From Squalus acanthias (lineage: Eukaryota): 64,000 bases of DNA. The stretch lies in assembly GCA_030390025.1 (NCBI GenBank), contig CM059431.1:127846001-127910000 (forward strand), written 5' to 3'. Under the pieces are notes generated by a model. The model made no database searches. It worked only from the letters and a program-made list of their open reading frames with translations, and had not been told where the DNA came from. Made by a program: the position numbers and the translations under genes. Shown in pieces: positions 15,841-32,596 of this stretch; the stretch's first letter is position 1; every line of letters starts with the position of its first letter.

Positions 15841-18252
15841 CTTTTTTTTATTCGTATATGGGATATGGGTGTCGCTGGCAATGCCAGCATTTATTGCCTA
15901 TTCCTAATTGCCCTCGAGAATGTGGTGGTGAGCCGCCTTCTTGAACCGCTGCAGTCCGTGTGGTGAAGGTACTCCCACAGTGCTGTTAGGGAGGGAGTTC
16001 CAGGAATTTGACCCAGCGACGATGAAGGATCGGCGATATACTTCTAAGTCAGGATGGTGTGAGACTTGGAGGGGAACTTGGAGGTGGTGGTGTTCCCATG
16101 TGCCTGCTGCCTTTGTCCTTCTATGTGGTAGAGGTCGCGGGTTTGGGAGGTGCTGCCGAAGAAGCCTTGGCGAGTTGCTGCAGTGCATCTTGTAGATGGT
16201 ACACACTGCAGCCACGATACGCTGGTGGTGGAGGGAGTGAATGTTTAAGGTGGTGGATGGGGTGCCAACCAAGCGGGTTGCTTTGTCCTGGATGGTGTCG
16301 AGCTTCTTGAGTGTTGTTGGAGCTGCACTCATCCAGGCAAGTGGAGAGTATTCCATCACACTCCTTACTTGTGCCTTGTAGATTGTGGAAAGGCTTTGGG
16401 GAGTCAGGAGGTGAGACACTCGCTGCAGAATATCAAGCCTCTGACCTGCTCTTGTTGCCACTGTATTTATGTGGCTGGTCCAGTTAAGCTTCTGGTCAAT
16501 GGTGACCCCCAGGATGTTGACGATGGGGGATTCGGCGATGGTAATGCCGTTGAATGTCAAGGGGCGGTGGTTAGACTCCCGCTTGTTGGAGATAGTCATT
16601 GCCTGGCACTTCTGTGGCGCGAATGTTACCTGCCACTTATTAGCCCAAGCCTGAACGTCATCCAGGTCTTGTTGCATGCGGGCATGGACTTCTTCATATA
16701 TGAGGAGTTGTGAATGGCGCTGAACACTGTGCAGTCATCAGTGAACATTCCCACTTCTGACCTTATGTTGCAGGGAAGGTCATTGATGAAGCAGCTGAAG
16801 ATGGTTGGGCCTAGGACACTGCCCTGAGGAACTCCTGCAGCGATGTCCTGGGGCTGTGATGATTGACCTTCAACCACCACAACCATCTTCCTTTGTGCTA
16901 GGTATGACTCCAGCCAGTGGAGAGTTTTCCCCCTGATTCCCATTGACTTCAGTTTAACTAGGGCTCCTTGATGCCACACTCGGTCAAATGCTGCCTTGAT
17001 GTCAAGGGCAGTCACTCTCACCTCACTTCTGGAATTCAGCTCCTTTGTTCATGTTTGGACCAAGGCTGTAATGAGGTCGGGAGCTGAGTGGTCTTGGCGG
17101 AACCCAAACTGGGCATCTGTGAACAGGTTATTGGTGAGTAAGTGCTGCTTGACAGCACTGTCAATTACACCTTCCATAGACTGATGGGGCAGTAATTGGC
17201 CGGGTTGGATTTGTCCTGCTTTTTGTGAACAGGACATACCTAGGCAGTTTTCCACATTGTCGGATAGATGCCAGTGTTGTAGCTGTACTGGAACAGCTTG
17301 GCTAGAGGCGCGGCTAGTTCTGTAACACAAGTCTTCAGCATGACAGCCGAGATCTTATCGGGGCCCATAGCCTTTGCTTTATCTAGTGCGCTCAGCCGTT
17401 TCTTGATATCACGTGGAGTGAATCGAATTGGCTGAAGACCGGCTTCTGTGATGGTGGGGACCTCAGGAGTAGGCCGATATGTGTCATCTACTTGGCACTT
17501 CTGGCTGAAGATGGTTGCAAACACTTCAGCCTTGTCTTTTACATTCACCTGCTGGGCTCCACCATCTTTGAGGCTGGGGATATTCATGGAGCCTCCTCCT
17601 CCTGTTAGTTGTTTAATAGTCCACCGCCATTCACGACTGGATTTGGCAGGACTGCAGAGCTTTGATCTGATCCATTGATTGTGGGATCGCTTAGCCCTGT
17701 CTATAGCATGCTGCTTCCTGCTTTTTAGCATGCATGTAGTCCTGTGTTGCAGCTTCCCCAGGCTGGCACCTCATTTTTCGGTACGCCTGGTGCTGTTCCT
17801 GGCATGCTCCTTATTGATCCAGGGTTGGCCCCCTGGCTTGATGGTAATGGTAGAGTGAAGGATATGCCGGGCCATGAGGTTACAGATTGTGGTGGAATAC
17901 AATTCTGCTGCTGCTGATGGCCCACAGTGCCTCATGGTTGCCCAGTTTTGTGCTGCTAGATCTGTTCTGAATCTATCCCATTTAGCACGGTGGTACTGCC
18001 ATGCAACACGATGGAGACTGTCCTCAGTGTGAAGATGGGACTTCGTCTCCACAATGACTGTGCAGTGGTCACTGCTACCAATGCTGTCATGGACAGATGC
18101 ATCTGCGACAGGTAGATTGGTGAGGATGAGGTCAAGAAGGTTTTTCCCTTGTGTTGGTTCTCACTACCTGTCGCAGGCCCAGACTGGCAGTTATGTCCTT
18201 CAGGACTCGGCCAGCTCGGTCAGCAGTGGTGCTTCCAAGCCACTCTTGGTGA
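15841..18252 (-). mobile_element. 5'-truncated CR1/Zenon-like LINE
   Basis: ORFs 15904-16677, 16626-17021 (AFDRVWH, QGSVLGP) and 17240-17731; poly-T at ~15842. Confidence 0.9.
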
Positions 18253-18738: not shown

Positions 18739-20459
18739 TGTAGAATTCGCAATATATCGCGATTTTATTAATAAGGAGAAAAACACATAGTTTCGTTCAA
18801 ACAGCTTTTATTTCAGCAGAATGCTGTCAGGTTTTCAAAGTGGACACAAGCAGCTGTAAAATGGCCGCCGCACCTCGTGGCAGAACATTCTAGACTTTTC
18901 AACAGGCAGACAAGATGGCGTTCCAGTAAACATTTGTGCAAGATCGATTAAGACTCAGCACATTGAAGATAATACACGAGACATCATGGGTTTACAGTAT
19001 ACACATAAATACTGAAATCGGTCTCCCAGGTGCGAATAAGAGCTATTGTACCAAGTAATCAAGAATCCATCCAAAGACATTAATATGTAAAATCCCAACG
19101 ACTCTACGATGAGAGAGCCGTTAGCGGGTAGTTACAGAAAACACTTGGAAGCCCCAAAACCCCTCCGGGGAGAACACCGACCGATTAAACAATGGGAGAA
19201 ATATTAACAGGTACTCAGACATTTACGAGTAGCCCCGAAACCCATTAAAACGAAGATCACCCTATACAAGACATTTGAGCGCCAAACCCTAACAAAAGAA
19301 AAGACATTAAGGTTGGGCGGGAAACGGAAGATTTTGCACTATAATTGCAAGCTCCAAACCGTCCATCTTTCTCTTGACTCTTGACTCTTGACTCTTGACT
19401 CGTATCCTCGTGGCTGCTCTTGACTCGCCGTCTTGTTCCTGCTTGCCTTGTGTCTCTTTTCAAAAAGACTGTTGAATTTTTACGATCCGCTCGAATCTAC
19501 CTCGTGTCGTGTCGCGAAGACCTGTGTAGAACTGGGCTCTGAAGCCTTGAAGCGGGCGCTCCATTCCGATAAGTCGGTAAACGGTGTTGGAACCGAAGGC
19601 CCGAGATGAGATGAGATGAGATGAGATGAGATGAGATGAGATGAGAAGAGAAGAAGACCATACTTATCGCCACGGTCAGTAAGCCCCGACCACGCCTGTA
19701 GGTCGAATAGACATTTTCCTTGCCAGGAAGACTTCTTTGAGTTCTACAGAACTGACACAGGAAGACTCTTCTTCGAATTTTATCGCATCAGTGCGAGGGC
19801 ACAGGAAGACTCTTTTTTTGAGTAGAGTCGGAACTCCGAGGACAACACAGATCTTCATGACAGCAGACGTTCCAGCCTGCTAGCCGGAGCAGAAACGAGT
19901 AAACAAGTGGGGCCAGGAGACCCCCTGATCGACACGTGGGCGCTGCGGTGAAAAACATCCGATCAGAGTTTTCGGAATTCTCCGAGTTATCACGAGTGGT
20001 GAGCATGAGTCTCGAATCCTACGAATCTAGCTTAGGACAGATATTGATAGGGGTGGGTTTCAAGTATTAAGGATAATTGTAATGTGTGCCCCCATTTACG
20101 ATGTGTCGTTCGTTCCTCGTTTCCCCGAAATTAGTTACATAACTGCGTGTAAGATTGTACTGTCATTAATCTGTGCTTATGACATGTATTTCGTAATCTT
20201 AAGTATTATGCAATAAAGATTTTCCATTTCGTACCATTCAACCGAGTCTACCTGAGTTTCATCTCCATTACTGCTCTCGCATCTAAGTCCAGTGTCTAGA
20301 ACCGTAAGGGCGAGTGGGTCGAACCACTCACAGGTGTGTCTAGTGCTCCCAGACTGGCTGGAGACCAGAACAGGCAACAAGGCCTAAACCCGCACTAGCA
20401 CCCGGGCTGAGCACAGAGCCACACGAATCTCACAGGCTGAGAGCCAAAAAACCCTTACA
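18739..20459 (+). repeat. 5' LTR (~1.72 kb)
   Basis: tgtagaattcgc…cccttaca; homologous over its whole length to 30929-32596; AATAAA at ~20212; internal (gagat)n at ~19603-19645. Confidence 0.92.
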
Positions 20460-20463
20460 GAAA

Positions 20464-22271
20464 ATGGCGACCGCGGCAGGACACTGGCAGCGAGAGGGTA
20501 GTGTGTTAGATTTTGGTGTGAATGTACGAAATGTTATGCAGGAAAAGATAGCAGATTATGTGTTCGGATAGGTAAATCTAACTAAGAAATGGATAAGTGA
20601 CCTGTTAGCAGATAAGAGTCCACTAGAGGCAGCCGAGAGGTGGACAGATAGTAAGGAACATAAAAAGACAGTCGAGAAAGCAGTCTGGTTAATGTGTTAC
20701 AAAAGGCAGGTCCAGATTTCAAACCAGGTCATTACAGCGCAAACAGCTCGGATCAGGCATTTAGAGGAGGAAATGGATGAGAAAGTCTCTGGAGGGGAGT
20801 TGCTCATTAGGAATTTAAGTGTGCTGCACCGAGAACGCCAGGAAATCACCAGTCACCACAAAGCAAAAATGGATTACCTCGAGTGCCAAGTCACTGAGGC
20901 AAAGTTAAGTGAGGGCAGACTAAAGGAACGATGTGCCCGCCAAGCTGCCCAAATAAGAGCCCAGGAAGAGAGCTTAACGGGGGTTAGGGCGGCATATAAG
21001 ATGGCCCTTGAGGATAAATTTCAGGGGGCCGATCATAGCGCCTGCCAAAAGAGATAGAGCACCTTAAAAGGGCCGTGAACAAAGCGCACGGCATGGTGTG
21101 CCTTATCAGTCCGTCAGCACACCAGCCGCTAGTAGATGAGGAGTTTCAGAAATTCCCACCAAGTAAAGCAAAGGACGTATTAGCCACTACGCCCTCCGCG
21201 CCACCCAGCTATTCGGAAACCTGGGTAAGGGAGGAAGTAGTAGAAGAAACAAAAGAGCCCACTGAGGGAGAAGTGGAAAAGGGACCGTTGTGTCCAGTTA
21301 CGGGTATAAAAAGGGGCCCAAACAGAAACGGTGGGGAGGAACCAGGGGATCTCCTCAACCAGCTTGTGTTGCCTCACAGCTCACACCAGCTGAGAGATAT
21401 GATAAATCACGTACGGAAGCTGACCGAGTCAGACGACCCTTCCGTACATTTCAGAGAAGTTGAGCAAACCGCAGCCATTAACGGCTGCGATGATGGGGAA
21501 ACAGCAAAAATGCTGTTATTTTCGTTAGGCAGTTCAATCCTTCAGTGTCTCTCGGACGAGAGCAAGAGGGGAACCAAGACATATGAGGCATTAAAAAATG
21601 AAGTCCTAGAAGTGTTGGGGACGGACGATGAAGGTCCGTTTGCTAGAGTGGGACAGACAGTGCAGATGGAGGGAGAACCCCCGAAGGTTTTTGCCGACAG
21701 GCTGTGGCCAGTATATCAACGCAGCTGTCCAGGTGCGCCAGAGCGCGATGATGTGGACGGCGTCGGTTTAACTCATTGGCTCAGGTGTATAGTAGCCAAC
21801 AGTTTGCCAGCCGTCAGAGAGCAGGCAAAAGCGTGGTTTGATCCCACTGACCCCAACATTACGGAAGAGTCGGTCTTAAATCGACTCACGGTAGGATACC
21901 GCAATATAAGGGGTATGGGAACACGTCCCCTTAAGGGAAAAGTACATGAGGTACGACCCGCAGCCCCGGCTCAAAAGGAGTGGCATCAGGAGGGTAACCG
22001 CGCCCCGCATGCAAGTAATGCTTGTTACGGGTGTGGGAGGACAGGACACTGGCGCAAGAACTGCAGGAACCCTTGGAAGGATTCCAGGGATAAAAATCCC
22101 GCAGCCCGAGCCCAGATGCCTGTCTCGGTTAGGGAAGCTAGTGCACCCACCCCTCCCGACGACCTCGAAACAGTGTTGGGAGCCATGCGCAACTTCATGA
22201 GTGCACATGGAAAGGTGGCGGTTGCTACCGGCCCCGCAGGTGCCACAGCCCCGTCCAATAGTACCCAATGA
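20464..22271 (+). pseudogene. gag: gag (~600 aa; in-frame TAG at 20569, 1-nt frameshift at ~21050)
   Basis: ATG 20464 is in frame with ORF 20692-21057; N-terminal coiled coil, PSAPPSY, MHR-like QMEGEPPKVFADRL, zinc knuckle CYGCGRTGHWRKNC (22023-22064). Confidence 0.88.
20465..20482 (+). promoter_or_regulatory. Primer-binding site, tRNA-Arg(UCG)
   Basis: TGGCGACCGCGGCAGGAC is complementary to the 3' end of vertebrate tRNA-Arg-TCG (…GTCCTGCCGCGGTCG-CCA, recalled sequence); it lies 5 nt after the LTR. Confidence 0.85.
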
Positions 22272-23417
22272 CTAGAGCCCACGCAGCCTGCCTACCTGTG
22301 TCCTTTTAAAAGACACGCACAGGAGGGCGTCTCCTGTGAGGAGGCCAGGTTAAAAGAGCAGGCCTTGCGGGAGGAGAACGCCCACTTAATAGGGAAAATA
22401 GATGGGCTAGAAGAGCAGCTTAGAGAGCAGGCCCTGCGGGAGGAGAACGCCCGCTTAATGGGAAAGTTAGACGTGCTCAGGCTAGAAGGGCAGCTTAGAG
22501 AAATAAAAGCAGCCTACCAGGTAGCCAGAAGCAGGGATTTAAATCAGTGCAAACTGTACAAGCCAGGTGCACAAGGGAAAACCACAGGGGCAAACCCTGC
22601 GAGTGGGGACTCGCAGCCCCAGGTAGGACCACAAGGCACACAGGCAGGCAAAGCAGCCTGCATCAGGGAAGGAGGCATCCTGGAAAATTGTGAAACATTT
22701 TTGTGGGGTTGGCAGTCAGATGAGGGAGAGTTCCAGGAACTCGAGTCAGATGAGGATAGTGATGAGGACGAGTGGGAATCGGGGAACGCAAGGGTCGCCC
22801 CCGATTCAGGTATAGGGAGGACAGGGGCTGCAGATAGAGATCCACACAGGGTGGACACCCAGGCTGCAGGTCCCGAACACAGGAGGGAGGAGCTAGGGGA
22901 GGCGGAGCCAGCCACTGTGGGACCACAGGGCGGGACGGCGGAAACCTCAGAGCCCGAGCCGCCCGCCTTGAACGTCCTGCCCTCGGGGGAGGTAGGGACT
23001 GCGAGTGAAGGGCCGCCTGCTGGGCCGAGCAGGGCGGTGCCACAAGCTGCAGGTCCCGAGGTCAGGGAGGCGGAGTCAGGGGAGGCGGAGCCAGCGACTG
23101 TGGTGGGACCACAGGTCGTCCCGGTGGAAGTCTCGGAACCCGGTCCGTCGGTCCTGGGATTCCTGCCCCCGACAACTCCTCGTAGGTCAAGTAGAGCACC
23201 CCAGCCCAGGAAGATGTGGTCATGGCCCCAGACTGCCCCAAGGCGTAGACTCAAGGTTAAGGCAGCCCAGGTAGGGCCCGGTCCCATCGCAGCAGCAACA
23301 GGCTGCGGCAGATCAAAGGAAGGGGTCAGTGCAGCCACAGGCTGCGGCAGATCAAAGGAAGGGGTCAGTGCCCTCCCAACGTCGGGAAGAGCTCGCAGCA
23401 GCCTTCTCAGAATTTAA
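22272..23417 (+). CDS. ORF2: uninterrupted ~381-codon frame after the gag TGA-CTAG; coiled-coil, acidic and Pro/Glu-rich; no pol motifs
   Basis: Same frame as gag with no stop between 22272 and 23414; internal repeats EQALREENA x2, QAAGPE…GEAEPATV x2, AATGCGRSKEGVS x2. Confidence 0.65.
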   Translation, partial: LEPTQPAYLCPFKRHAQEGVSCEEARLKEQALREENAHLIGKIDGLEEQLREQALREENARLMGKLDVLRLEGQLREIKAAYQVARSRDLNQCKLYKPGAQGKTTGANPASGDSQPQVGPQGTQAGKAACIREGGILENCETFLWGWQSDEGEFQELESDEDSDEDEWESGNARVAPDSGIGRTGAADRDPHRVDTQAAGPEHRREELGEAEPATVGPQGGTAETSEPEPPALNVLPSGEVGTASEGPPAGPSRAVPQAAGPEVREAESGEAEPATVVGPQVVPVEVSEPGPSVLGFLPPTTPRRSSRAPQPRKMWSWPQTAPRRRLKVKAAQVGPGPIAAATGCGRSKEGVSAATGCGRSKEGVSALPTSGRARSSLLRI

Positions 23418-23723
23418 AGGGGCCGCCCTGGGAACGGGCGGCGCTGTACAGTAATAAGTTTAAGTTTAGGATAAGTTTCTAGGTTTATAGCTTAAGGTTA
23501 AGAATAAGTTTATAGTTTTAAATAAGGTTAAGTTTGTAGTTTAATTTTAACAGAAAATGGTAAAATGATGGGAGCTTTAGAGATAGGTCTAGTTAAAGTT
23601 TATTCAGTGAACATTGAAGTTTACGTGAGGCGAGGTCAGGGGACCCGCTCACCCTTCACAAAAGCCAGAGACTCTTGCGAGGCTGGCTACCTCATTCTAT
23701 CTGATCACAGGAACCAAGGAAGG

Positions 23724-25030
23724 ATGGAACGAATTCTAGTATTGCTCGCGGCAATCGGATGTGGATTGGCCTATCGAGGCCGCACCAAGGATGTCGTGGT
23801 GTTTGGATGCTCCGGGGACACGGCCCCCATCGCGGTGGATGGGACCGGAAGACGGGAGGCTGAGGAGACCACCACCTATTTCCACAAGGGAAGGTGGCCA
23901 GGATGGCTGGGAACAAACTCAACGGAGTATTCTAGCACATCGGGGTTTGCCTACCAAGAGACTTCTTTAATGTGCCCCAAAGTAAGGATCATCGCACCCA
24001 GAATCAGCGTCACTGTCGGCAAACGGATTTGTTTGACTTGTAATGGGAATGTCCCATTGAGCCGATGGTGGTGGCTGCGAAAGCTGAGCAAAAACATGAG
24101 GAACTCTTCGGTCGAGTGGGAACGACTGGGTAATAATACCCATCGGACAATTACGGGGACAAACGGACAAGTGAGAGTCTGTTGGGACAAATGGTGGGAA
24201 CCGGATGAGGGAATTTAGGTATGCATGTGGGGGTCAAAGTACGCTTGCCCCAAAGGCATCTCCATATTTTTCATTAACGAATGGCAGGATAACGGACAGG
24301 GGATGAGGTGGGATGCGAGCACCAGGGGGTGCGGAGCCCCATACTCTTCGATCCCGGTAAATGCCACTGAGCTCATTACGCGCTCACGCAAAGCCCCGCC
24401 CACGATTCCGGTGGTTCTAGCTGAAGAGGAAGGGTGCCCTAAAACTAGTAAGGGACCCGGGAATGGTTTGGTACTGGTCCCCACAGACCAGATACTATTT
24501 CAGGGGGTACATTACGCGGTGGCCTCGGTGATTTTAAATCTCACCGAGGTACGGTTACCAGAGTGGTGCCCCAAAAAGACGGAACAGTTGTATCAGGTCC
24601 TGTTGACCAAGATGTTCAGACAATTTTACGAATTCGATTTCGCGGAAATTGATAAAACAAGTTTGTACACCGCACCACATGAAGTTTTGGATCAAGTAGG
24701 GAGGCAAAGAAGGGGTGTAGTGAACGACGCGTTCACTGCTTTTAACACGGGTACATCTGTGGTCAACGCTCTAGACAGTGTGGAGCTGCAGACCCAGATT
24801 AATGGTTTAAAGACGCAATTAAAAGACATTCTAACAGATGAGAATAAAGTGGTTGGGTCGGGTTTACACGAGGACCAAGCCATGACTCTCCATTTAAAGG
24901 AAATTATAGCAGAGTTAGAGAAACATGCGAAGACGGTAAATGCCCTGATTAGAGAAGATCGGAATGCATCCGATCAAGCTGCGCAGAATGAGGTGTGTGT
25001 GCTTTACGGGGCGTGGTTACTGGGCATTTG
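23724..25030 (+). pseudogene. env: env: signal peptide + Ig-like domain + class I fusion protein (paramyxo/pneumovirus-F-like); one in-frame TAG at 24216; C-terminally truncated
   Basis: Signal peptide MERILVLLAAIGCGLA; ORFs 23565-24218 and 24225-25160 share a frame; furin site RQRR (24702-24713) followed by GVVNDAFTAFNTGTSVVNAL and a heptad repeat; candidate splice acceptor ttctatctgatcacag ending at 23710. Confidence 0.8.
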
Positions 25031-25279
25031 GAACCTCCGGTGCACACGCATAGCCGCAACATTGGGTGCGTTGCGCGGTTCCGGTGGGGGCGGGACAGGG
25101 TTTAGGCTCCGCCCTCATGCAGTGTGCGTGCCCAGAAGGACGCAGAAGACCCCTTGCTAATAATCACTGTGCATATTTTATCTCTTCCAGGTTTAACCCT
25201 GGCCAGTCAAGTTTACTGAGCCTTGGGAAACCCGGCAGCTAAAGGGAGGCAAGGACGGCTGCGTGGAAGAGATGAATGG

Positions 25280-26670
25280 CCTTTATTACAAGAGGATTTG
25301 AGTATCAGAGTAAAGACATCTTACTGCAATTATATAGGGCCCTGGTGAGACCACACCTGGAGTATTGTGTACAGTTTTGGTCTCTTTGGCCCAGAAATTA
25401 AACATCGATGGTTCCCGCGGGGGTAAGGATTCCCTGCGATATTGCACTCCGCGCCTACCTTTTTGTTTCGGGCCCACACGAACTTCAGTTTCAGGGCCTC
25501 TCCCTGTTGCCAGCGTGCAGTGCTTGCGTGTCCCAGAGGCGCAATTAGTTCATGCGAGCTCTGGGATCACGTGATTCAGTTAGAGCCAATGGCAGCACAC
25601 CATCTTTCATTCATAGTTTTGACAGCAAGGGCTGTCAAAGCTATGAATACTACAAGCCCCCAAAATAACAGCTAAACCTCAGTCAAATTATAAAAAAAAG
25701 CCATCACATTAATGAAATAACTATAGTTAAATAAATTAACCACTTTAAACAAAAAATATAATTTTTGAAAAAATTTAAAATCTTTTTAAAAGTTATAAAA
25801 ATAAACTTACCTTTCTTTAAAGTCTCTAAAAAAGATAAACCTGTTGAAAAAAAATTAAAATAACACTTAATTAACTACTTACCTTGTTAAAAGGGGGTCC
25901 TACGCCTGCTTTCTTTATGTGTAAAATCTTTACCACTTACCTGCGCGTTCAAACCTGAAAAAAAAACTAAGTGCACTGCGTGCGCGCAGCCTGTAGCGCG
26001 CACGCGGTTCACTTAGGAACCATCCCCTTTGCAATACACGAAGTGCCGGTTTCCCGCGCATGCACAGTGCATGCAGGAAACCGGCAATTCTGGAACTAAT
26101 ACGCGAGAGTACACAGTGCGTACTCTCGCGTATTAGGTCTAATTTTCGGGCCATTACCTAAGGAAGGATATACTTGCCATAGAGGGAGTGCAATGAAGGT
26201 TCACCAGACTGGTTCCTTGGATGTCCTATGAGGAGAGATTGAATAGACTCGTCCTATATTCTCTAGAGTTTAGAAGAATGAGAGGTGATCTCATTGAAAC
26301 ATACAAAATTCTTACAGGGCTTGATGGGGTAGATGCAGGGAGGATGTTTCCCCTGGCTGGGGGGTCTATAACCAGGGGTCACAGTCTCAGAATAAGGGGT
26401 CGGCCATTTAGGACTGAGATGAGGAGAAATTTCTTCACTCAGAGGGTGGTGAATCTTTGGAATTCTTTACCCCAGAGAACTGTGGAGGCTCAGTCGTTGA
26501 GTATATTCAAGACAGAGATCAATAGATTTTTGAATATTAAGGGAATCAAGGGATATAGGGATAGTGCGGGAAAGCGGAGATGAGGTAGAATATCAGCCAG
26601 GATCTTATTGAATGGCGGGGCAGGCTTGAAGGGCCAAATGGCCTACTCCTGCACCTATTTCTTATGTACT
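25280..26670 (+). mobile_element. CR1 3' fragment split by a MITE
   Basis: [13 protein letters not shown]… and ORF 26221-26583 (LYSLEFRRMRGDLIETYKI); CR1 tail. Confidence 0.88.
25388..26152 (-). mobile_element. Harbinger MITE family A, copy 2
   Basis: TIRs ggcccagaaatt / aattttcgggcc; nearly identical to 61517-62277. Confidence 0.9.
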
Positions 26671-27211: not shown

Positions 27212-29330
27212 AGGGAGAAATTGGTCCTGGTGACAGTCATTTCCTAGAAGGAAACCATGGGCAAATAGCACTAATTTGGGGGCGAAACAACCCCAAGGGC
27301 ACCGGAAAAATATCCAAGCCCATTCAAGCGACATTCAGGTATACCTGGGGTGGCAGGTAAAATAATAATGATAATAACCATCCCTCAACGTGCAGCTGGT
27401 GTGTAACCACAAGAAGGAAATTTTGTATGTTTGCGCCAAGTACCCTGGCAGTTGCCATGACTCGTTCATCCTGCGGCAGTCTAGTGTGCCTCCGCTCTTC
27501 AGTCCGCCAAACCAACTTTGCGGATGGCTAGTTGGAGACAAGGGCTATCCCCTGAAGACGTGGCTAATGACACCATTCAGGAGGCCATTCAACGAAGCTG
27601 AGGAGCGCTACAACTCCAGCCACATTTCGACCAGATCCATTATCGAGCAAATCATCGGCTTGCTGAAGATGCAATTCAGATGCTTTGATAGATCAGGTGG
27701 AGCCCTGCAGAACTCAGCAGCCAAGGTATCCAGAATCGTCGTGGTCTGCTGTGCACTTCACAACATGGCACAGCATCGTGGCTTGCAGCTGCCTGAGGGA
27801 CAAGTGGCTCAGTGCATAGCCTCCTCAGATGAGGAGGAGGAGGATGAGGAGGAGAGTGAGAACGAAGACCTTGCGGAGGCGCATCAACCAGCGGCAGTAG
27901 CACGCGAGAACATTGCTGCCCGGGATGCAAGGGATGCACTGATCTTGGCCAGATTTGCTTAGGCTGCCCAATCAAACACATTTGGCTCGCACCTTCTTAC
28001 CACACCATCGACAATGGACAAGAACCTGTGGCTTCCTATCACTCTGACCACCATACTGACAAATCCAAGTCGTCCTGAGCCCTCAATGTGGAATTTCCAT
28101 TTGCGAAATGACACAGCCCACAACTTCAACAGTTTGCCATCACTTCATTTTATAACATTCAGTAAAGGATGGCATTTCACAATTAAACACAACAGAACAC
28201 TCAAGTAACTACCCTTGTGACTACTTGTGCTTTATCTTCCTCTTACGCGTGCTCCTACATGGTGCTTCCACTGTGGCTTCAACAGATGTGGAGGCCCCTT
28301 GCTCACTTTCATGCTGCTTCTGCCGCGACACCTTTGGCGGGTGTCCTCTGGGGTTGCGAGCCTGTGAGGGCTCGCCAACAGTCTGCTGCTCCTGCGGCTG
28401 TGCAGGGGCTGAGATGCCCATCTCAGTCGGTTGAGGACTCTGGTGGGGCTCTGACCGAGGGCTCCGCAGTGGCATGCGAGTGTGAGGGCTTGGAGAGGAG
28501 CCCCCACTTCCTTGTTGTCTGCCACCAACATCCCTCTATTGGGTCAGACCGACTTCAGAGCTAGCAAGTGGCTTGACAGCACCTTGCTGCACTTCAGGGG
28601 GGCCATGAGGACCCATTTCTGAACTGGCAGTCCTACTCCAGAGGACTTCCATGAAGCTCTGGTTTCTCTGCTCAATAGCTGCAGAGATGTCAGTCCAATC
28701 TGAACAATTACCATGTTTTCAAGACCTTGGCGACTTAGCTCCTCCATGACCGTAGCCATTCTCTCCTCTACCGTAGCCATCCTTTCCACGGAGGTTGCCA
28801 TCCTTTCCGTGGTGATGCATTCAAGCGCCAATGCCTCTACAAAGGCTCTGCTCATGTTAGCGATGGATTCCTCCATCCTCTCCACACTCGCAGTGACCCT
28901 GGAGACAAAACCTGCCAGAGACTCCTGCACCTGTTCCTGGAGTTCCATCACCGCTCTCCTCCTGGATGGACCCAGAGGCACAGGGTCGACATGCAGCTGA
29001 GCCGAGCTGGGAGCACCCTGCGGCCTCCGACGAGGACTCTCCACTGCTGTCCCTGTCTCCACCATCTGCTGATGCTCACTTGTGAGCTGTGATACACCAG
29101 TTGACAACACTACTCTATGTCCCGAAGGTTCCACCGAAGTTTGAGTGTCTGCGCTGGTGCTGGGTGCGCTTAATTCTGATGACGCTGCACCCTCAGAGGT
29201 TGTAGCTTCCTCTGAGGAGTCTGGGGGCTCAGGCTCTTCTTCCTGGACAGTGGGGAGGGTGGCTGTCGATGGTCCTGTGGGGGAGTAAAGGAAAGAGTTA
29301 GACATGTGATATAAACGTCTAATTGCCTGC
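27212..29330. mobile_element. Internally deleted Harbinger: transposase C-terminus (+, ~27380-27962) and last Myb-gene exon (-, ~28221-29275)
   Basis: SLNVQLVC…[11 protein letters not shown]…[10 protein letters not shown]…CCALHN; convergent low-complexity/coiled-coil ORF ending RSTRKRKIKHK; TIR-like gggagaaattgg at ~27212. Confidence 0.85.
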
Positions 29331-30928: not shown

Positions 30929-32596
30929 TGTAGAATTCGCAATATTATCGCGATTTTATAAATAAGGAGGAGACACATAGTTTCGTACAAACAGCTTTAT
31001 TTGAGCAGAATGCTGTCAGGTTTTCAAAGTGGACACAAGCAGCCTGTGAAATGGCCGCCACGCCTCGTGGCAGAACGTTCTAGACTTTTCGATAAGCAGA
31101 CAAGATGGCGTTCCAATAAACATTTGTGTGAGATCGGACAAGACTCAGCACATTTGAGATAAATCACAAGACATAATGGGTTTGCATTTTACACATAAAT
31201 ACTGGAATCGGTCTCCCAGGTGCGAATAAGGGCTATTGTACCGAGCGATCAAGAACCCATCCAAAGACATTAATATGCAAAATCCCCACGACTCTACGAT
31301 GAGAGAGCCGTTTGCGGGTAGTTACAGAAACATTTGGAAGCCCCAAAAGCCCTCCAGGGAGAATACTGACCGGTTACACAATGGGAGAAGTATTAACGGG
31401 TACTCAGGCAGTTACAAGTATCACCGAAACCCATTAAACGGAGATCACCCTATACAAGAAGTTTGGGCGCCAAAACCCTGACAAAAGAAAAGACATTAAG
31501 ATTGGGCGGGAAAAGAGGAATTACAGCACTATAACTGTAAGGTACAACCGTCCATCTGTCTCTTGACTCTTGCATCTGCCTCTTGACTCTTGGATCCTGA
31601 CTCTTGCTGCTCGACTTGCTAGAAGACTTTTGAACTTTCTGATCCGCCAGGATCAACCTCGTGGCTTGCCGCGAAGATCTGTGAAGAACTGGGCTGTGAG
31701 GCCTTGAAACGGGCACACCATCCCGAGAAGTCGGTAAACGGTGTTGGAACCGAAGGCCCGAGATGAGATGAGATGAGATGAGATGAGATGAGAAGAGAAG
31801 AAGACGACCATACGTATCGCCACGGTCAGTAAGCCCCGACCGCGCCTGTAGGTCGAATAAACACTTTCCTTGCCCAGGAAGACTATTCTTTGAGTTTTAC
31901 AAACTGGCGTGAGGGCACAGGAAGACCATTCTTCGAGTTTTATCGCATCGGGGCGAGGGCACAGGAAGACTATTTTTCGAGTCGTGTCGGAACTCCGAGG
32001 ACAACACAGATCTTCATGACAGCAGACGGTCCAGCCTGCTAGCCGGAGCAGAAACGAGTAAACAAGTGGGGTACAGAGACCCCTGATCAACACATGGGTG
32101 GTCAGGTGCTGCAGGAAAAACATCCGAGCAGAGTTTCGGAATTCTCCGAGTTATCACGAGTGGTGAGCATGAGTCTCGATCCTACAAATCTAGTTTAGGT
32201 CAGGTATTGATAGGGGAGGGTTTAAGTTTTAAGGATAATTATAATGTGTGTCCCCTTTTACGATGTGTCGTGCGCTCCTCGTTTCCCTAAAATTAGTTAC
32301 ATAACTGCGTGTAAGATTGTACTGTCATTAATCTGTGCTTATGACATGTATTTCGTAATCTTGAATAATATGCAATAAAGATTTTCCATTTCGCACTATT
32401 CAACCGGGTCTACCTGAGTTTTCTCTGCATTATTGCTCTCGCACCTAAGTCCAGTGTCAGAACCGTAAGGGCAAGTGGGTCGAACCACTCACAGGTGTCT
32501 AGTGCTACCAGGCTGGCTGGAGACCAGAACAGGCAACAAGGCCTAACCCCGCACTAGCACCCAGGCTACGCACAGAGCCGCAGGTCACCCCTTACA
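30929..32596 (+). repeat. Solo LTR, same family as 18739-20459
   Basis: TG…CA ends; 4-bp TSD CAAT on both sides (30925-30928 and 32597-32600); no PBS after it and no PPT before it. Confidence 0.92.

Follow-up and report, generated by a model that had tools for sequence, protein, structure and literature searches.

The window analysed here, a stretch of 64,000 nucleotides of the Squalus acanthias genome (assembly GCA_030390025.1, contig CM059431.1, positions 127,846,001 to 127,910,000), contains on its forward strand a defective copy of an endogenous retrovirus (ERV). The envelope gene of this copy, env, had been predicted from the letters alone to encode an immunoglobulin (Ig)-like domain at 23985-24230, fused N-terminal to the fusion protein, interrupted by a TAG stop codon and perhaps captured from a host. 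Our analysis leads us to regard as likely that the Env of this element carries an old Ig-type module on an F-type fusion protein, with receptor binding as the putative role of the module. The env features are listed below in window positions and Env residue numbers. P0010 is the Env of an intact copy in the same assembly and P0001 is the window translation, in which the stop was read throughout as X. A4 is a 19-row N-terminal alignment of shark and skate database fragments and diverged sublineages of the same genome, the latter found with P0015 and P0018 as queries.

23724..25025, + strand: env, residues 1-434 of a 783-residue protein (tblastn with P0010, blastn)
23724..23771, + strand: putative signal peptide, residues 1-16 (hydrophobic MERILVLLAAIGCGLA, modelled helix H2-14)
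23973..24293, + strand: predicted Ig-like domain, residues ~84-190 (profile, sub-threshold Pfam matches, AlphaFold2 (AF2) strands, VIA-align)
24039..24041, + strand: B-strand Cys, residue 106 ('LTC'), Cys in 17 of 19 A4 rows
24072..24074, + strand: C-strand Trp, residue 117, Trp in 17 of 19 A4 rows and invariant in the 17-row alignment A3
24216..24218, + strand: private TAG in the F-strand motif, residue 165 of P0001 (comparison with other copies)
24222..24224, + strand: F-strand Cys, residue 167, Cys in 15 of 19 A4 rows
24456..25025, + strand: start of the part with predicted homology to F, including the start of heptad repeat A (VIA-align, Foldseek)
24702..24713, + strand: multibasic furin-type site RQRR, residues 327-330 (sequence; R-x-[KR]-R aligns across clades in alignment A1)

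The env gene and its N-terminal module

The frame from the ATG at 23724 opens with MERILVLLAAIGCGLA, hydrophobic and signal-like by eye, and further on reads ISVTVGKRICLTCNGNVPLSRWWWLRKL and QVRVCWDKWWEPDEGI, the TAG, and VCMWGS. When the 3.7-Gb assembly was searched with P0001, 89 places were scored of 8,702 first-look candidates. No stop occurs over residues 1-435 in 85 of the 88 other scored copies, which are 98-99% identical, and the remaining three have one TAA or TGA each, elsewhere in these residues. The TAG site is a sense codon, for the same residue, in all 19 other copies that were fetched (loci L002-L020), and 15 of these have an uninterrupted 783-codon env; annotated proteins of a skate (P0002, 75-76% identical) also read through the site. 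The ORFs (open reading frames) before and after the TAG, the latter encoding the fusion part, are therefore one env gene, and the TAG is a lesion private to the window copy at the tyrosine site, much as had been suspected. The stop does split the window frame into 23532-24218 and 24219-25160, as it would if an accessory ORF were followed by an env starting after the TAG, but against the copies and the skate orthologue this two-gene arrangement has next to no chance, and a separate upstream ORF was rejected, as other copies carry no stop at the site.

All coordinates and spacings of the original prediction were recovered on re-reading: a Cys at 24039, Trp 9-11 residues later, the TAG at 24216 and a second Cys 61 residues after the first. 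The domain as delimited here, 23973-24293, encloses the interval proposed originally. The 61 residues between C106 and C167 lie inside the range typical of Ig domains (~55-75), and of the three Trp (115-117) that stand 9-11 residues after C106, W117 is the one at 11, within the ~10-15 usual for the strand-C Trp of Ig domains. The F strand has the motif D161-x-G163-x-[stop 165]-x-C167, its D encoded at 24204-24206 and its G at 24210-24212; the D/E-x-G-x-Y-x-C motif is complete in intact copies and relatives, and interrupted by the TAG in the window copy. Within A4, the F strand has Gly in 16 and Tyr in 13 of the 19 rows. The composite pattern C-x(9-15)-W-x(30-60)-D-x-G-x-[Y or stop]-x-C has a single match in the six frames of the window, and of 200 mononucleotide shuffles of this stretch, 8 contain the same pattern one or more times. 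By itself it is suggestive and only modestly unlikely, and the family profile provides the stronger statistics.

Compared with 177,635 distinct sequences of the PDB, the A4 profile has JAM as its best match (E 9.8e-8). Seven matches fall below E 0.001 and all are members of the Ig superfamily (IgSF): JAM, JAM1 (2e-5), JAM-A (3e-5), DIP-alpha, VEGFR1, CG32791 and OBCAM. Of the 60 PDB matches listed, 59 are by name IgSF proteins or antibodies, the exception being ArfGAP1, and the matches cover profile positions ~70-160. The Pfam family Ig_3 appears at E≤1 in 11 of the 19 members of A4 (best E 5.8e-4) and is the only family to recur. The automatic source label of the bamboo shark relative P0018 is 'Ig-like domain-containing protein', and language-model features of residues 82-192 lie nearest to the ig, V-set, I-set and Ig_3 clusters (0.88-0.90, the level of a lead). 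One further alignment, A2, was dropped, as the C-terminal parts of full-length distant proteins had been misaligned onto the query region, and a word-indexed search with the N-terminal 216 residues returned three matches, all of them relatives already known.

For the N-terminal 221 residues AF2 gave a poor model (mean predicted local distance difference test score, pLDDT, 44.9), and the full-length model described below repeats its seven strands with a pLDDT of 50-81 over the block. In the full-length model the strands lie at residues 87-97, 102-107, 116-121, 141-146, 149-154, 163-171 and 180-186, and the AF2 models, at a pLDDT of only 45-81, tentatively place all seven as in an Ig sandwich with sheets A-B-E-D and C-F-G. 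In a Foldseek search with the N-terminal model, the top 50 matches are antibody, T-cell receptor or nanobody-type chains, at E 5e-3 to 1.3e-2 (best 5.4e-3). VIA-align against 48,161 chains gives a list filled by V-set and I-set domains, the best with Z 6.6, a root mean square deviation (rmsd) of 3.2 Å and 90 aligned residues over Env 84-178, a Z value within the range where the tool warns of a mere common arrangement. Sequence identity of the module to any solved Ig domain is 10-19%. Because every approach agrees on the superfamily, the residues and the register, we hold it very probable that Env residues ~84-190 are Ig-like.

The module has a family-specific signature of Trp-rich motifs that is atypical of cellular Ig domains. 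RWWWLRKL (Env 114-121, ~24063-24086, C strand) is invariant in all 12 rows of the clade close to the window copy, and CWDKWW (Env 153-158, 24180-24197) precedes the F strand, with LNWP[QS]FW as its counterpart in the distant clade. These motifs may make up the surface on which function depends, or they may contact the F head. In or beside the module there are three N-glycosylation sequons (NST 64-66, NSS 127-129 and NNT 137-139).

A full-length model of the intact Env, built from the 50-row alignment A5, has a mean pLDDT of 67.4 (83-96 in the core). Its best Foldseek match is the F protein of human parainfluenza virus 3 (hPIV3; 1ztm, E 2.4e-11), among 242 matches at E≤0.001 that include the F proteins of respiratory syncytial virus (RSV), Langya virus, parainfluenza virus 5 (PIV5), Newcastle disease virus, Nipah virus, Hendra virus and mumps virus. 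VIA-align places Nipah postfusion F first (Z 12.8, rmsd 5.2 Å, 293 aligned residues), and 219 chains reach Z≥8. The order of the intact protein is signal peptide, add-on, F2-like segment, RQRR, heptad repeat A, β-rich head, heptad repeat B, anchor and short tail, with modelled helices at residues 355-444 and 681-714 and a transmembrane (TM) helix at 730-766. Cleavage would take place at RQRR (residues 327-330), judging from the sequence of the site, and the segment that follows it, GVVNDVFTAFNTGTSVV, is moderately hydrophobic and modelled with low confidence. Of the F part the window copy retains, in 24456-25025, the F2-like sheet and helix, the cleavage site and the fusion-peptide region, and the remainder is absent.

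Sequence methods miss the link to F. The Pfam family PF00523 has no match at E≤1 for P0010, phmmer against the PDB returned no F chain, and the 10-sequence full-length profile A1 against the PDB returned no F protein, its best match being an obscurin Ig domain (E 0.18). One copy of the second, distant clade (the L038 ORF) matches PF00523 at E 0.036, with 12.8 bits against a cut-off of 29.8 bits. On the strength of the predicted structure, the fusion part of the intact Env appears to be a complete F-type class I fusion protein of the paramyxovirus/pneumovirus kind. The F chains align from residue 243-245 of the Env model and from their own residues ~23-34, the N-terminus of mature F2. Because F homology starts only at Env ~245, residues 17-244 (~228 residues) would be an N-terminal add-on to F2 with no counterpart in F, and the Ig-like domain would be its core.

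The pooled profile, the VIA-align neighbours and the evidence for a single gene bear out an IgSF-type domain in Env, N-terminal to the fusion machinery; an Ig-like fold is predicted and the other copies do not keep the stop. The arrangement had been described as unlike classical retroviral Env. That comparison needs correction, for by predicted structure the fusion part is no classical TM subunit and is of the paramyxovirus/pneumovirus F type, as published for the Env of lokiretroviruses (PMC7947760).

The window copy and its family

The other features of the element in the window were delimited by comparison with an intact copy on contig C17 (loci L021 and L022) of the same assembly:

18739..20460, + strand: 5' long terminal repeat (LTR), 94.5-95.6% identical to the two LTRs of the intact copy (blastn)
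20494..22268, + strand: gag, frame-broken near 21048-21069 (tblastn with the 591-aa Gag of the intact copy)
22304..22536, + strand: coiled-coil-coding filler of 233 nt at the pol deletion (blastn against the intact copy)
22537..23414, + strand: remnant of the integrase C-terminal tail ORF, 86% identical to Pol residues 1217-1495 (tblastn)
30929..32579, + strand: LTR-like stretch, 86.8% identical to 18739-20460

The gag of the window copy encodes a coiled-coil N-terminus, a capsid-like part and a CCHC zinc knuckle (Pfam zf-CCHC, E 0.0015, under the cut-off). Gag residues 1-192 and 186-591 lie in different frames, with 93.8% and 94.8% identity to the intact Gag. About 3.6 kb of pol, encoding protease (PR), reverse transcriptase (RT), RNase H and most of the integrase, is missing from the window copy (L021 5409..9024 in the intact copy, blastn). 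The filler at this deletion codes for a repetitive coiled-coil in which LKEQALREENAHL occurs twice. It has a weak Pfam match to Rab11-FIP3 (E 2.3e-4, under the cut-off) and, by eye only, a likeness to the coiled-coil N-terminus of related Gag proteins. In the intact copy the integrase tail has a Tf2-1-like SH3 match. Within the tail ORF of the window, two direct repeats of ~70 nt at 22847-23171 (spacing 183-186 nt, 71-80% identity) are an internal duplication of a low-complexity segment in an acidic, proline-rich ORF.

The env of the window is 99.1% identical to P0010 in amino acids over residues 1-434, with no further tblastn match in the window, and 97.8% identical to the intact copy in nucleotides, the blastn alignment ending at 25025. 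The C-terminal 349 residues of Env are lost beyond this point, where unrelated sequence follows. We found no partner 3' LTR for the copy in the window; judging by its sequence, the LTR-like stretch at 30929-32579 appears to belong to another, related lineage instead of pairing with the 5' LTR, and it is probably a solo LTR or one of a pair from a different sublineage. The window copy is thus defective in several respects: pol is deleted, gag is frameshifted, env has a private stop and the back half of env is gone. The TAG in the Ig motif is one of several lesions, and no single change restores the function of the copy. By eye, LINE-type reverse-transcriptase ORFs lie just upstream of the ERV (15904-18160, - strand), and a LINE-like 3' ORF (26197-26583) and a Harbinger-like ORF (27378-27962) lie between 25026 and 30928.

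The intact copy encodes a Gag of 591 aa, a Pol of 1495 aa and an Env of 783 aa (P0010), with gag and pol in one frame separated by a single stop, a readthrough layout. Its LTRs of 1683 bp (L021:1890-3567 and L022:467-2149) are 99.47% identical to each other, and the insertion is therefore young. The element is a very young and very abundant ERV of cartilaginous fish. The junction of the pol deletion was found, at 97-98% identity, at no fewer than 39 other genomic places (of 2,839 first-look candidates). The pol-deleted form is thus a high-copy, non-autonomous derivative that keeps gag, the coiled-coil filler, the integrase tail and env. Many of the junction places lie ~1.5 kb upstream of open env copies (for example on C471, C6, C1 and C3330), and on contig C3295 (86821-118634) five junction copies on one strand, spaced by 7.6-8.1 kb, suggest a tandem array of the pol-deleted element.

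The intact Pol comprises PR, RT, a Ty3-type RNase H-like tether, a second RNase H and an integrase with an H2C2 finger, a core and an SH3-like tail. The two RNase H domains are matched in Pfam by RT_RNaseH_2/RT_RNaseH at Pol 470-602 and by RNase_H (PF00075) at 650-792. By phmmer, Pol is about equally near to Ty3 (8.7e-72), gammaretroviral RT (1.3e-69) and foamy virus PR-RT (9.1e-64), distances that fit a deep position without placing the element. Relatives of its Env were found by database searches in many sharks, a skate, frogs and the coelacanth. The hallmarks of lokiretroviruses, in the published text, are a dual RNase H (a degraded tether and a newly acquired domain) and an F-like Env (PMC7947760, PMC9040795), and because the present element has both, we place it by reasoning as lokiretrovirus-like, with a gag, a dual-RNase H pol and an F-like env. 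Some database gene models (P0005, P0013 and P0043) join pieces of Env to host genes (Niban 1-like, a zinc-finger protein and fbxo15) and are probably annotation chimeras arising from ERV insertions.

Function, identity and age of the Ig-like module

Among the 15 intact 783-codon copies, the pairwise ratio of nonsynonymous to synonymous differences per site (pN/pS) is 0.06 for env (pS 0.055, pN 0.0033) and 0.07 for the Ig part, with pS at 0.03-0.06. These copies are the best protein scorers, a choice that biases pN downward somewhat, although such a bias cannot alone yield a 16-fold excess of pS. The sequences thus point to strong purifying selection on env, including the Ig part, among copies, and mostly synonymous differences are what rounds of replication dependent on a functional Env would be expected to leave between copies. 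When lineages are compared, the N-terminal region has diverged more quickly than the core: identity is 52-60% against 70-72% in two lineages, and 14-21% against 24-28% in the distant clade. Faster divergence of this part is expected of a receptor-binding subunit and would also fit a target of immunity.

The module lies on the F2 side of RQRR 327-330, the side equivalent to the surface subunit (SU) of a retroviral Env. Paramyxovirus F proteins need a separate attachment protein for receptor binding and for the triggering of F. A retrovirus has a single env gene, and we therefore propose the Ig-like module as a binder in cis: carried on F2, it would be the built-in attachment part, the Ig-bearing F2 would remain attached to F1 after cleavage, and engagement of a receptor by the module would release the refolding of the F-type protein. 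By this analogy, the Ig-like module is probably the receptor-binding part of Env.

A real Ig-like module could also serve as an immune decoy or mimic, as a shield over the F head or as a prefusion clamp, with the receptor bound elsewhere. The three sequons in or next to the module would suit such a role, the invariant RWWWLRKL and CWDKWW could face the F head instead of a receptor, and some F proteins, as in pneumoviruses, can engage cells with no appended domain. Fast divergence between lineages combined with strong constraint within them is, however, the usual signature of a receptor-binding subunit, and we think a role other than receptor binding unlikely.

The assignment to the IgSF itself has to be weighed against the possibility that the module is a generic two-sheet β-sandwich that acquired its Cys, Trp and Gly-x-aromatic-x-Cys positions by convergence. 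Several results weigh on that side. No Pfam Ig model reaches its gathering score in the window frame, in the intact protein or in members of A4; the intact protein matches Ig_3 at E 0.31 over residues 88-167, with 12-14 bits against a cut-off of 30 bits, and the window frame with X at the stop has no match to a Pfam Ig family at E≤1. With phmmer, the window frame and the intact protein find in the PDB only antibody light-chain V domains, at a non-significant E of 1.2-1.4. The significant profile result requires both clades to be pooled, for the profile of the close clade (A6) finds in the PDB only the Ig-V domain of CRTAM (E 0.43 and 0.68) and that of the distant clade (A7) has no PDB match at E≤0.01. 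No Foldseek match for the N-terminal model reaches E≤0.001, the VIA-align score is middling by the tool's own scale, the Ig-domain models are of low to moderate confidence, and the shuffled windows yield the pattern at the frequency given above.

Convergence nevertheless has to contend with a pooled profile whose matches below E 0.001 are IgSF proteins without exception, with Ig_3 as the only recurrent sub-threshold family, and with the Foldseek and VIA-align neighbours, the language-model features and the source label of the bamboo shark relative, which agree on superfamily and register. We judge convergence improbable. Of the checks that the original prediction had proposed, AF2 with Foldseek yielded Ig-type neighbours for the N-terminal model, at E above 0.001, and the Pfam matches stayed under the cut-off.

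The IgSF-type module is not confined to the copies closest to the window. It is present in at least five sublineages of the same genome, at 47-60% identity, and in the second clade of P0018-like proteins, at 14-21% identity, against ~24-28% for the fusion core of that clade; in every case a conserved C-P-x4-G-P-x-N-G-L motif follows the module immediately. The two clades keep the same register over 72 aligned columns, starting at the B strand and ending at the F-strand Cys. This profile link is marginal (hhalign E 0.0087, HH probability 4.6%), and further results count against extending the module to all relatives. The A4 hidden Markov model (HMM), run against all stored proteins, does not reach the frog or unassigned relatives P0022, P0051 and P0037, nor does it reach P0017, and the profile A8 of the frog and unassigned proteins finds no Ig chain, its best match being an unrelated helical protein (E 0.013); among these relatives P0037 alone has a weak V-set match (E 0.045). 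Ig-like motifs read by eye in the frog proteins are therefore unsupported. These results do not allow the module to be taken as ancestral for the Env family as a whole.

The word 'captured' in the original prediction, understood as a recent acquisition, fared less well than the domain itself. Fusion of a host IgSF exon to env by this ERV lineage would account for a cellular IgSF signature that is absent from paramyxovirus and pneumovirus F, to which homology begins only at ~245, and for best solved relatives that are cellular adhesion molecules (JAM above all). F has no Ig part, and the module must therefore have been added to an F-type protein at some time. Yet among the 50 matches that the whole Env returned from 1.84 billion representatives, no cellular protein matches its N-terminal ~220-230 residues, which are matched only by ERV Envs or gene models chimeric with them; identity to solved Ig domains is low, as given above; and the sublineages and the second clade have the module at the same position. 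Because deeply diverged clades have it in common at that position, we consider a recent capture by this element very unlikely. Within the explanation as a whole, which we regard as the likely one, the Env family of these elements has long had the module in common in shark genomes.

Relation to known systems and significance

JAM-A and its kin (1f97, 1nbq and 6gsi) are the best profile matches (E 9.8e-8 to 3e-5), and the B-strand Cys, C-strand Trp and F-strand G-x-Y-x-C of the viral module have aligned counterparts in each of the two JAM domains. The scores are low (27-35 bits), however, and there is no sign of specific descent from JAM; the viral module differs by extra cysteines (87, 137, 159 and 187 in region numbering) and by its Trp-rich motifs, RWWWLRKL and W-x-x-[FW]-W before the F strand. 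With the F proteins of paramyxoviruses and pneumoviruses (hPIV3 1ztm, Nipah 8dmj, RSV 3rki and PIV5 2b9b), Env shares the predicted fold over residues 245-~715 and the order of F2, multibasic site, heptad repeat A, head, heptad repeat B and TM anchor, but at only 6-16% identity, and F has no Ig-bearing add-on of 228 residues. Ig-like sandwiches serve as receptor-binding elements of entry glycoproteins elsewhere, in the V-like core of herpes simplex gD and in the β-sandwich of the gammaretroviral receptor-binding domain (RBD). gD is a separate protein, and the RBD is a domain of the SU of a canonical Env and has no canonical Cys-Trp-DxGxYxC signature. We know of no Ig-like part of either type that is fused to an F-type fusion protein.

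The closest described elements are the lokiretroviruses, whose Env resembles paramyxovirus and pneumovirus F and not the canonical TM subunit (Wang & Han 2020, PMC7947760). As set out in the main text of that paper, they share with the present element a gag, a pol with tether and new RNase H, an env and LTRs; an Env with signal peptide, multibasic site, fusion peptide, coiled coil and TM region; and frogs and the coelacanth as host groups, in which relatives of this Env are also found (PMC7947760). They differ in that the same main text mentions neither an immunoglobulin or Ig-like domain nor cartilaginous fishes or sharks, so that cartilaginous fishes are not named there as hosts. The link to F was also obtained differently, from predicted structure in the present case, PF00523 giving no match at E≤1 for the intact Env. 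Errantiviruses, with their baculovirus F-type Env, likewise have an F-type protein as the single env of an LTR retroelement, but they are Ty3/gypsy elements of invertebrates, and no homologous intact elements of the errantivirus type are reported in vertebrates in the accessible text of that study (10.1101/2023.10.26.564294).

The word 'immunoglobulin' is absent from the main text on lokiretroviruses (PMC7947760) and from the accessible texts on Odin elements (PMC9040795) and Troyka (PMC12440569), and both 'immunoglobulin' and 'Ig-like' are absent from those on env-carrying retrotransposons (10.1101/2023.10.26.564294) and on the diversity of anamniote Env (10.1101/2021.11.23.469661). A literature search returned no paper joining lokiretroviruses with immunoglobulin, and broader queries gave nothing pertinent. 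An F-type retroviral Env with an IgSF-type N-terminal module thus appears to be new in the literature covered, its sole prior trace being the automatic label on P0018.

The F-like Envs of lokiretrovirus-type elements have been recognised by sequence similarity only. A canonical IgSF-type module placed before F2 is a concrete candidate for the attachment function, by which a lone F-type protein would find its receptor; it is conserved under strong purifying selection in a recently amplified family, and it exemplifies the fusion, in the course of this family's history, of a cellular-type adhesion domain with a viral fusion protein. The range of this Env type is extended to sharks and skates, in which intact, near-identical copies offer unusual structural and evolutionary material. 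If the proposal is correct, the Ig module would be a determinant of receptor specificity, and the Env would provide a natural model in which the triggering of F is wired to a binder in cis. More tentatively, we put forward as a possibility that an F-type protein gained a cellular-type Ig domain at the N-terminus of F2 and so became a one-protein machine for attachment and fusion, which may lie behind the recent expansion of this lineage to thousands of copies in the germline of cartilaginous fishes.

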